From the sequence record PP925839.1: a stretch of 64,000 bases of DNA, one strand, 5' to 3'. The first letter of the stretch is position 1. Every line of letters begins with the position of its first letter. This document shows positions 6,111-7,299 of the stretch, piece after piece. Made by a program: the position numbers and the translations under genes. The stretch is from Escherichia phage PinkRuby. Below the pieces are notes generated by a model. It was not told where the DNA came from. It saw only the letters and a program-made list of their open reading frames with translations, and made no database searches.

Positions 6111-6151
6111 TCAGTAGTTGATATTGATATAGTACCATAATCAACTACTGA
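6111..6151. repeat. perfect 12-bp inverted repeat (TCAGTAGTTGAT / ATCAACTACTGA) with 17-bp spacer
   Basis: read directly from sequence; intergenic. Confidence 0.7.
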
Positions 6152-6182
6152 TGTATATAGTTTTATGAAAAAAATTTAAACT

Positions 6183-6680
6183 TTATGCATAGCGAGCTTT
6201 GCTGTAGTGTTTAATCCAACTTTCAGGAATGACTTTGTATGTTCCTAAAAATACCGTGTTGTACAGCTTAACACCGTCTTCTACCCACTGGTCTGTAATA
6301 TATGCACACATAGCGCGAGTATGGTGTTTTTGAACAACCCCTTCCTCATCTTCAGTAAATTCGAATTCATAAGGAGCAACGAACTTAATAGCTTGACCGA
6401 GTTTCCACTTAAAGTCTACACCTACGTGCGAAGTATCAATCGTTTCAATTCCTTTAGCATGAACAGCTTTCAAAAACGCAGACTCAAGAAATTTCGCACG
6501 AACATAGCCAAACTGAGGTTTAGATTTTCCATCTTTAGGAATGATACGCACTTTTACTTCAGAATCTTCATCTTTAACACCGTGTTTAAGCTGAATGCTT
6601 ACAATTTCGACCAATTTTCCTGCTGCTTTAGAACGGGATTTATCAGATACACGAGCAATTTCACCAATATTAATAATCAT
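6183..6680 (-). CDS. MotB-like early protein (motB map position)
   Basis: 165 aa; C-terminus paralogous to ORF 6757..7299 (YITDQWVEDGVKLYNTVF vs WVTDQWIEDGVELLNVVH). Confidence 0.5.
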   Translation of the reverse strand: MIINIGEIARVSDKSRSKAAGKLVEIVSIQLKHGVKDEDSEVKVRIIPKDGKSKPQFGYVRAKFLESAFLKAVHAKGIETIDTSHVGVDFKWKLGQAIKFVAPYEFEFTEDEEGVVQKHHTRAMCAYITDQWVEDGVKLYNTVFLGTYKVIPESWIKHYSKARYA

Positions 6681-6725
6681 AGTTATCTCTCACTTGTTAA
6701 AAAGATTTTATACTCCACAGGACCA

Positions 6726-6754
6726 TTATACTCTGGTCCCAAGAGTTTGTAAAC
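6726..6754 (-). promoter_or_regulatory. T4-type early promoter
   Basis: gtaaac 6749-6754, -10 complement of ttatac 6726-6731, 17-bp spacer. Confidence 0.5.
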
Positions 6755-6756
6755 TA

Positions 6757-7299
6757 TTAATTCAAAATAGCTACCACTGCACTACGAGGTACTACGCTAA
6801 AATCACCTGCATGAACAACGTTCAGAAGTTCAACACCATCTTCAATCCACTGGTCTGTTACCCAACCACAGACCGAAATAAATGGGGTCTTAATAGCTAC
6901 TGCACGAGTCAAAAGGTCAGTAGGATCAACTTCTTTGAAGAGGATAAGCTCTGCTTCAAAGACTATAGTTTTAATTACTTCATCATTATCTAAGCGTTGT
7001 GCTCGAATCACATAAGCTTTATTCTTATCATGCCAATTACTTTTTGAAAAACTTTTAACCACAAACTCGCCTTCACCAAAAACATTGGTCAATGCTTTAT
7101 AACCCAAACTTAGTTCAGTAGTTTTAATTTCAGTTTCAACCAGTTTGTAGATTTTACCAATTTCGATGGTCCGAGCAGTCATAAAGGTTTCCTTAATTTC
7201 TAATGGTTTAACAAGAGTGCCGTACATGCTTGCTATATCCATGTCAAGCAGCTTATATACAGGATTCGGTGCGTATTCAGGATTATAATTAAATTTCAT
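6757..7299 (-). CDS. paralog of the MotB-like protein
   Basis: 180 aa; shared C-terminal motif with ORF 6183..6680. Confidence 0.5.
   Translation of the reverse strand: MKFNYNPEYAPNPVYKLLDMDIASMYGTLVKPLEIKETFMTARTIEIGKIYKLVETEIKTTELSLGYKALTNVFGEGEFVVKSFSKSNWHDKNKAYVIRAQRLDNDEVIKTIVFEAELILFKEVDPTDLLTRAVAIKTPFISVCGWVTDQWIEDGVELLNVVHAGDFSVVPRSAVVAILN

Follow-up and report, generated by a model that had tools for sequence, protein, structure and literature searches.

Background

Promoter-early stem-loops (PeSLs) have been described for phages RB49/phi1 and T4/PST (Arbiol et al. 2010, PMC2839356; Comeau et al. 2014, PMC4122927). The stem-loop most commonly lies between the -35 and -10 elements of an early promoter or overlaps the -10, and a Shine-Dalgarno sequence and an ATG are found at the 3' end of the cassette (PMC2839356). 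For the T4/PST cassettes the promoter consensus is TTTACW-N17-TAYWAT (Comeau et al. 2014, PMC4122927). One stem-loop from RB49/phi1 lowered the expression of a reporter to the same extent as the rrnB T1 terminator (PMC2839356), and PeSLs have been proposed as recombination sites adjoining insertions and deletions (PMC2839356, PMC4122927). Here we analyse a perfect inverted repeat immediately downstream of motB in a 64,000-nucleotide stretch of Escherichia phage PinkRuby (PP925839.1), referred to below as the window. Our best explanation is that the repeat is the stem-loop of a decayed PeSL-type cassette located between motB and the next small open reading frame (ORF); we assign this explanation as a whole a probability of about 0.55. 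It is carried by the anatomy of the site, its membership in a family of promoter cassettes, a strong predicted fold, and near-invariance across about 500 relatives.

Two further T4 systems resemble parts of this arrangement. In the T4 genes e, soc, 49 and I-TevI a late promoter is placed between or within the arms of a hairpin, and only transcripts that start upstream form the structure (PMC3014915). Early mRNAs of T4 are cleaved by RegB with S1 at sites for which the 11-nt optimum is GGAGAAUAAAA (Durand et al. 2006, PMC1702504).

A cassette of the early-promoter family at the inverted repeat

The elements of the region to which we refer most often are the following.

6725..6753, minus strand: motB early promoter, TTTACA-17-TATAAT, an 11/12 match to the consensus, with a nearly identical stretch in T4
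6183..6680, minus strand: motB, 165 aa (Pfam PF17613, phrog_1671), a DNA-binding, nucleoid-associated early protein
6158..6182, minus strand: A/T-rich tract AGTTTAAATTTTTTTCATAAAACTA, the UP-like part of the cassette upstream of the -35, aligned by eye with, for example, aaaaattttttcacaaaactg at 25410
6129..6157, minus strand: promoter-family core, TATACA (6157-6152), a 17-nt spacer, and TGG plus TACTAT (6137-6129), with the predicted +1 at A6122
6110..6152, minus strand: inverted repeat and stem-loop, 5' arm 6152-6140, loop 6139-6123 containing TGG-TACTAT, 3' arm 6122-6110
6085..6095, minus strand: ribosome-binding site GGAGAATAAAA, the Shine-Dalgarno sequence of the 88-aa ORF, its final A being the A of the ATG
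5819-6085, minus strand: 88-aa ORF, a member of phrog_3720 (E=2e-44)

The sequence ATCAGTAGTTGAT at 6110-6122 has its exact reverse complement at 6140-6152, and on the minus-strand transcript the repeat begins 30 nt past the motB stop codon (6183-6185). A sequence-only reading of this region had described a perfect 12-bp repeat with a 17-nt spacer; the perfect pairing and the spacer are as described, and the length is 13 bp. A regular-expression scan and a comparison with 14 further early-promoter-like sites of the minus strand placed the repeat over a member of the T-even early-promoter family, of which 15 related cassette sites were found in the window. From 5' to 3' the cassette consists of the A/T tract (6182-6158), a degenerate -35 (TATACA), 17 bp, TGG-TACTAT, a leader, GGAGAATAAAA with its GGAG at 6095-6092, and the ATG (6085-6083) of the 88-aa ORF. 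Relative to these elements, the 5' arm of the repeat is the spacer that separates the -35 from the -10, the loop holds the -10, and the 3' arm covers +1 to +13 of the transcript that would start here. The cassette at the repeat reads aaatttttttcataaaactaTATACAtcagtagttgattatggTACTATatcaatatcaactactgatacag...cttGGAGAATAAAATG; the copy at 25410 reads aaaaattttttcacaaaactgTTTACAtccccgttcttccatggTACTATacaactatcaactgatacgg... and that at 51905 is similar, these two having near-identical flanks (ttttttcacaaaactgTTTACA...atggTACTATacaactatcaact).

The cassette shares with PeSLs an intergenic position, an A/T-rich tract with the upstream stop codon, putative sigma-70-like -35 and -10 elements separated by 17 bp, a stable stem-loop overlapping the -10, and a ribosome-binding site and ATG at the 3' end. 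Like PeSLs it is repeated in the genome and adjoins an insertion or deletion of a small ORF of unknown function. The two hexamers agree with TTTACW-N17-TAYWAT at 11/12 positions: the predicted -10 matches the phage consensus fully, and the putative -35 matches it at 5/6 positions and TTGACA at 4/6. The degenerate -35 distinguishes the site downstream of motB from the described PeSLs. With TGn-TACTAT intact and the -35 degraded, the embedded promoter is probably weak or dead.

Phages SF (Mosigvirus) and phiE142 have a cassette about 80% identical to this one, with a canonical GTTTACA-17-TACTAT; the 3' arm is present in it and the 5' arm is not. We considered whether it is the ortholog of the site downstream of motB, but it is better read as the family member closest to the copy at 25410 in the window. 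A promoter, leader and ribosome-binding-site cassette of about 95 nt is shared between genera (positions 2480-2600 of the extracted SF and phiE142 pieces; 25382-25440 of the window). It stands at different genome positions before unrelated small ORFs (phrog_2678 versus phrog_3720), and this sharing fits the idea of a mobile regulatory cassette.

Three other assignments for the sequence around the repeat were rejected. GTTTAA-16-TATATA (6181-6154) could form a promoter upstream of the hairpin, but its spacing depends on a T run whose length ranges from 5 to 12 T in related phages. A MotA-dependent middle promoter is not indicated: the site has no MotA box, and the list of T4 middle promoters has no entry near 6.6 kb. 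The replication origin oriA has been placed near soc, not motB.

The predicted hairpin and its possible role downstream of motB

In the window, two perfect inverted repeats reach 13 bp or more with no more than 40 nt between the arms; first-order Markov simulations gave a mean of 0.05, so that the repeat is beyond chance expectation. The other one, TTGCCACGTGTTT ... AAACACGTGGCAA, is also of 13 bp (62973-62985 / 63000-63012, 14-nt spacer) and falls within the coding sequence of a 138-aa ORF (62665-63081, minus strand). RNA structure prediction, which had been suggested as a check, gave for the coding strand a hairpin of 13 bp, a 2x2 internal loop, 5 further pairs and a triloop, with a free energy of -20.2 kcal/mol (z=-5.5 against dinucleotide shuffles; 0/200 shuffles fold as well). 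Folded as single-stranded DNA, the same hairpin has -11.5 kcal/mol. A search of 5500-7900 on both strands found no Rfam match at E<=1.

A hairpin also follows motB in phage SP18 (Gaprivervirus), where the spacer between motB and cef (positions 1993-2038 of the SP18 piece) is just 46 nt. This 9-bp hairpin (GATAGGGTT...GCCCTATC, -13.7 kcal/mol) precedes the cef ribosome-binding site and has neither a promoter nor a U run; thus a hairpin after motB recurs in another genus with unrelated sequence.

The position and stability of the structure raise the question of whether it is a rho-independent terminator ending the motB transcript. It is intergenic, stable, and close behind the motB stop codon; GenBank record OL960581 annotates the exact sequence as such a terminator (a WebGeSTer prediction), and the RB49/phi1 stem-loop mentioned above acted like a strong terminator in its reporter. 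On the other hand, the stem is followed by ACAGAAAACAAC and no U run, only 4/13 pairs of the perfect stem are G-C, and a terminator scan made no call at 6105-6157. In addition, no strong promoter serving cef and goF lies between the hairpin and the start of either gene, so that both probably depend on read-through. We therefore consider a classical terminator distinctly unlikely. The proposal in the sequence-only reading of a hairpin for termination or processing is plausible as to the fold and poorly supported as to termination, and it overlooked the promoter-family element on which the repeat lies.

That reading had also offered the repeat as a dimeric binding site, with the MotB-like products as candidates. 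As a duplex-DNA operator it would allow a dimeric protein such as MotB or MotB.1 to repress the embedded promoter, and its perfect dyad symmetry, with arm centers 30 bp apart (about three helical turns) on either side of the -10, would suit such a role. However, the tight binding of T4 MotB to DNA shows no detectable sequence specificity (PMC6070864), 17 bp is an unusual distance between half-sites, and Pfam and PHROG profiles found no regulator of the helix-turn-helix type among the nearby genes. Matches to the arm with at most 2 mismatches number 7 in 64 kb compared with 3.2 expected, and two of the 7 are the repeat itself; since arm matches elsewhere are at chance level, a dispersed repeat or operator family was rejected as well. 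An operator is, in our view, very improbable.

In the explanation that we prefer, a decayed PeSL-type cassette, the hairpin would act on RNA that enters the cassette from motB. Given that the 5' arm coincides with the promoter spacer and the 3' arm with the opening 13 nt of a transcript from the embedded promoter, the hairpin can form on read-through RNA only. RNA begun upstream, at the strong motB promoter (mapped in T4 by primer extension; PMC1702504), would be the only RNA to hold both arms, and on it an 18-bp hairpin would form 30 nt past the motB stop codon. Any transcript of the embedded promoter would have the 3' arm at its 5' end and would remain unfolded. The hairpin may then serve as an attenuator, as a barrier to 3'-exonucleases, or as both, marking the end of the motB message.

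The putative ribosome-binding site GGAGAATAAAA (6095-6085) is also an exact copy of the RegB/S1 cleavage optimum. This candidate RegB site starts 14 nt past the stem, and the predicted cut, between GG and AG, is 16 nt past the stem; cleavage there would help define the end of the motB message. This candidate site resembles the T4 early-mRNA RegB/S1 sites (PMC1702504) in having the exact 11-nt optimum in an intergenic part of an early transcript. T4 retains the identical sequence although the ORF behind it is destroyed.

Hairpins at other early promoters

Predicted hairpins that bracket the -10 were found at four other early promoters of the window.

59698-59640, minus strand: hairpin bracketing the -10; -21.6 kcal/mol, z=-5.0
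50203-50143, minus strand: hairpin bracketing the -10; -23.2 kcal/mol, z=-6.3
7861-7802, minus strand: hairpin bracketing the -10 of the promoter before motB.2; -23.7 kcal/mol, z=-6.35
6753-6681, minus strand: hairpin bracketing the -10 of the motB promoter; -22.1 kcal/mol, z=-3.6

At all four, the 3' arm pairs the promoter spacer with the GGAG or ribosome-binding site of the leader. Over the 15 sites, complementarity between a spacer and its own leader was far above that of mismatched pairs, and 0/20,000 permutations matched the observed mean. In the Mosigvirus Shf125875 the motB.2 promoter still has a hairpin of this kind, built from other arm sequences (-23.9 kcal/mol).

These structures bear on the possibility that the repeat is a switch on transcript origin like those of T4 e, soc, 49 and I-TevI, in which read-through RNA would fold and silence the next ORF and RNA from the embedded promoter would be translated. 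The geometry matches: the promoter core lies between the arms, and the 3' arm opens with the predicted +1. When the entire intergenic RNA is folded, its minimum-energy structure has an additional 7-bp outer helix in which a U run pairs with UGGAGAA, the ribosome-binding site, and masking of the GGAG or ribosome-binding site by the 3' arm at 59698, 50203, 7861 and the motB promoter points the same way. In contrast to the T4 late-promoter hairpins, the promoter downstream of motB is of the early type and decayed, its -35 being degenerate, and the ribosome-binding site lies outside the main stem, beginning 14 nt beyond the strong pairing. The outer helix is weak, with two G-U pairs. The hairpin is unchanged in T4, where the downstream ORF has been destroyed, and this argues against a role tied to that ORF. 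We regard the switch as unlikely.

A broader proposal is possible, although we lean against it: hairpins straddling the -10 of T-even early promoters may be a general means of sensing the start point of a transcript. RNA started upstream would fold, hiding the ribosome-binding site or RegB site or, downstream of motB, building a 3' barrier; RNA from the embedded promoter would start inside the structure and stay open. The repeat downstream of motB would then be a copy with a decayed promoter, its hairpin having been retained, beside a perfect RegB site, to delimit and protect the motB message. The PeSL papers, as far as we found, read the stem-loops only as terminators or attenuators and as recombination sites (PMC2839356, PMC4122927), and we did not find in them a description of GGAG masking by the promoter's own spacer.

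Conservation of the cassette

The window is Tequatrovirus DNA, 98.6% identical over the region to Escherichia phage SholemSchwarzbard. The region was matched by 681 phage records, almost all Tequatrovirus, in which the surrounding 2.4 kb is mostly 80-95% identical. By comparison, of about 500 full-length matches to a 47-nt core, at least 475 are 100% identical, among them those in T4, T2, RB3, RB14 and phages of Yersinia and Shigella. In an alignment of 11 distinct Tequatrovirus sequences, variable positions number 0/26 in the arms and 47/165 at the third codon positions of motB (Fisher p=4e-4); for the intergenic region as a whole the count is 8/97 (p=7e-5). No more than two variants were retrieved, HY01 and IME340; they differ in unpaired bases, one in the internal loop and one in the triloop, and the triloop change also improves the -10 to TATTAT. 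The length of the T run in the cassette differs between phages. Scans of viral contigs yielded only 4-5 loci, too few for statistics.

The genes on both sides of the cassette are less constant. The 88-aa ORF is an annotated coding sequence in PP925840 and MT884006 and is present in the window, in GiZh and in the closest relatives. In T4, HY01 and IME340 it has been removed from codon 3 on by a single internal deletion; T4 keeps ATGGAAAA joined to TTCGC..., the last ~50 nt of the ORF (positions 2000-2060 of the T4 piece), and the deletion probably occurred between short A-rich microhomologies. The cassette is thus kept before an intact or a deleted ORF, and GiZh keeps it behind a different upstream gene, a third MotB paralog.

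This pattern is relevant to a further alternative, that the repeat has no function of its own. It would then have arisen incidentally in a decaying cassette, for instance as a quasi-palindrome that template switching made perfect, and would stay uniform because such cassettes are recombination junctions that become homogenised when T-even phages co-infect. Conservation covers all 97 nt of the cassette and reaches beyond the arms; the insertion or deletion of the 88-aa ORF and the exchange of the upstream gene occur right beside it, as would suit the proposed recombinational role of PeSLs; and the homologous SF and phiE142 cassette works without the 5' arm. Nevertheless, a perfect 13-bp repeat with 5 further pairs is improbable by chance. 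Spacers of sigma-70 promoters are normally free to vary, and this one is invariant. Similar hairpins are found at other promoters, the motB.2 pairing being kept in Mosigvirus with different arms. We judge a by-product quite unlikely.

Several points nevertheless weigh against a decayed PeSL-type cassette whose hairpin acts on the motB message. The -35, TATACA, has an A at the conserved second T, and a consensus scan made no promoter call at the site (8/12). Comeau et al. 2014 (PMC4122927) described and drew the T4/PST stem-loops immediately upstream of the promoter rather than over its -10, whereas that downstream of motB extends from the spacer through the -10 into the leader. Stem-loops lying over the -10 are the pattern of RB49/phi1 (PMC2839356); the RB49/phi1 stems are polyG/polyC and the stem here is A/T-rich. 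Efficient intrinsic termination is not expected, as no U tract follows the stem. Selection on pairing is unproven because the repeat is invariant and offers no compensatory changes. Conservation extends over the entire cassette and is not confined to the arms, as is also expected from recombinational homogenisation. Finally, three steps are inferred: attenuation, protection of the RNA end, and any activity of the embedded promoter.

motB, motB.1 and the surrounding genes

All genes of the locus are on the minus strand in the T4 order: 39, goF, cef, ..., motB, motB.1, motB.2, dexA, dda. In addition to motB and the 88-aa ORF, the following genes were assigned.

5165-5590, minus strand: goF
5590-5805, minus strand: cef (Pfam T4_Cef)
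6757..7299, minus strand: motB.1, 180 aa, the full-length form (phrog_2333)
7302-7805, minus strand: motB.2 homolog

The sequence-only reading had placed a MotB-like paralog pair, ORFs 6183..6680 and 6757..7299, at the motB map position, with a common C-terminal block. Both ORFs are present on the minus strand, encoding 165 and 180 aa; the gene order bears out the map position; and the block is seen in BLASTP as 16/32 identical residues (E=4e-11), AMCAYITDQWVEDGVKLYNTVFLGTYKVIPES aligning with SVCGWVTDQWIEDGVELLNVVHAGDFSVVPRS. The description as a pair needs one qualification: the genes are motB and motB.1, but only the C-terminal domain is common to the two proteins. BLASTP found no N-terminal similarity, the alignment being limited to 32 aa at the C terminus. 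Both this arrangement, a shared conserved C-terminal domain with different N-terminal domains, and the paralogy of these T4-type early genes have already been published, probable duplication having been proposed and the two genes reported together in about 40 phages (Patterson-West et al. 2021, PMC7827196).

Alignment with T4 MotB, the check proposed for this claim, gave 88% identity for ORF 6183-6680. The same ORF matches Pfam motB PF17613 with E=9e-99 and 328 bits (cut-off 25), residues 1-165 covering profile positions 1-162, and the phrog_1671 profile with E=1e-75. In T4, MotB changes H-NS binding and interferes with H-NS (PMC6070864, PMC7827196).

Residues 142-175 of ORF 6757-7299 also match PF17613 (34.2 bits, above the 25-bit cut-off), and with PHROG profiles the homology grows to some 60 residues (the MotB family phrog_1671 matches residues 120-178, E=5e-17). 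Over its full length (residues 1-180) this ORF belongs to phrog_2333 (E=7e-76), the family that includes T4 MotB.1, with which it has 50% identity across 46 aligned residues, the alignment ending GWVTDQWI. Database searching found 232 MotB.1 homologs; among the 120 listed, nearly all are 176-183 aa long and have the Pfam motB domain. An AlphaFold2 model of MotB.1 has a mean pLDDT of 66, with residues 43-180 mostly at 66-85 and largely beta, and residues 1-42 unmodelled. Foldseek matched this model to that of T4 MotB.1 (P39415, E=2e-6, TM 0.59 on the target), to MotB-family proteins, and weakly to KOW/eIF5A-like proteins; searches of solved structures with MotB and MotB.1 gave no match for either. 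The N-terminal part of MotB.1 has been reported to have an LSm-like fold, an LSm/SH3-like five-stranded beta domain (Kim et al. 2025). MotB.1 is an uncharacterised paralog that has only its C-terminal beta-rich domain in common with MotB.

Compared with the T4 proteins (Patterson-West et al. 2018, 2021; Kim et al. 2025), the window has the same locus, gene order and PHROG family of MotB.1, but its MotB.1 is 180 aa long, with an intact C-terminal motif and about 42 extra N-terminal residues. The T4 MotB.1 of NC_000866 (119 aa) is cut by a frameshift within the DQWIEDGV motif (...GWVTDQWI|GRWR*), and the remainder, EDGVELLNVVHAGEYSVVPRSAVVAILN*, is intact in the +1 frame just downstream (positions 2643-2800 of the T4 piece versus 6757-6850 of the window). 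As the T4 reference is frameshifted and most relatives encode the 180-aa form, the published work on T4 MotB.1 (13.8 kDa) used a truncated protein. In some relatives (positions 1444-2400 of the Shf125875 piece and 1504-2406 of the GiZh piece) a third MotB-family gene, similar to RB69 ORF010c and encoding 139 aa, directly follows motB; these phages thus have three tandem paralogs, motB.1, motB and the motB-like gene.

Several small ORFs are located between topoisomerase gene 39 and goF on the minus strand. The large subunit of topoisomerase II is unsplit in the window, a single ORF of 606 aa (2458-4278, minus strand); its T4 counterpart is divided by an insertion into genes 39 and 60.

Significance

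As a discovery the locus carries little weight: the MotB/MotB.1 pair is published, and the repeat is unchanged in T4, a feature of a described class and nothing new in kind. A caution arises for work on MotB.1, in that the protein studied from T4 is a frameshift-truncated version of the 180-aa protein encoded by most relatives. The value of the repeat itself is modest; it offers a clean, non-essential and easily mutated test case for promoter-embedded hairpins in T-even early transcription units, in which attenuation, protection of mRNA ends beside RegB sites, and start-dependent translation may be addressed.

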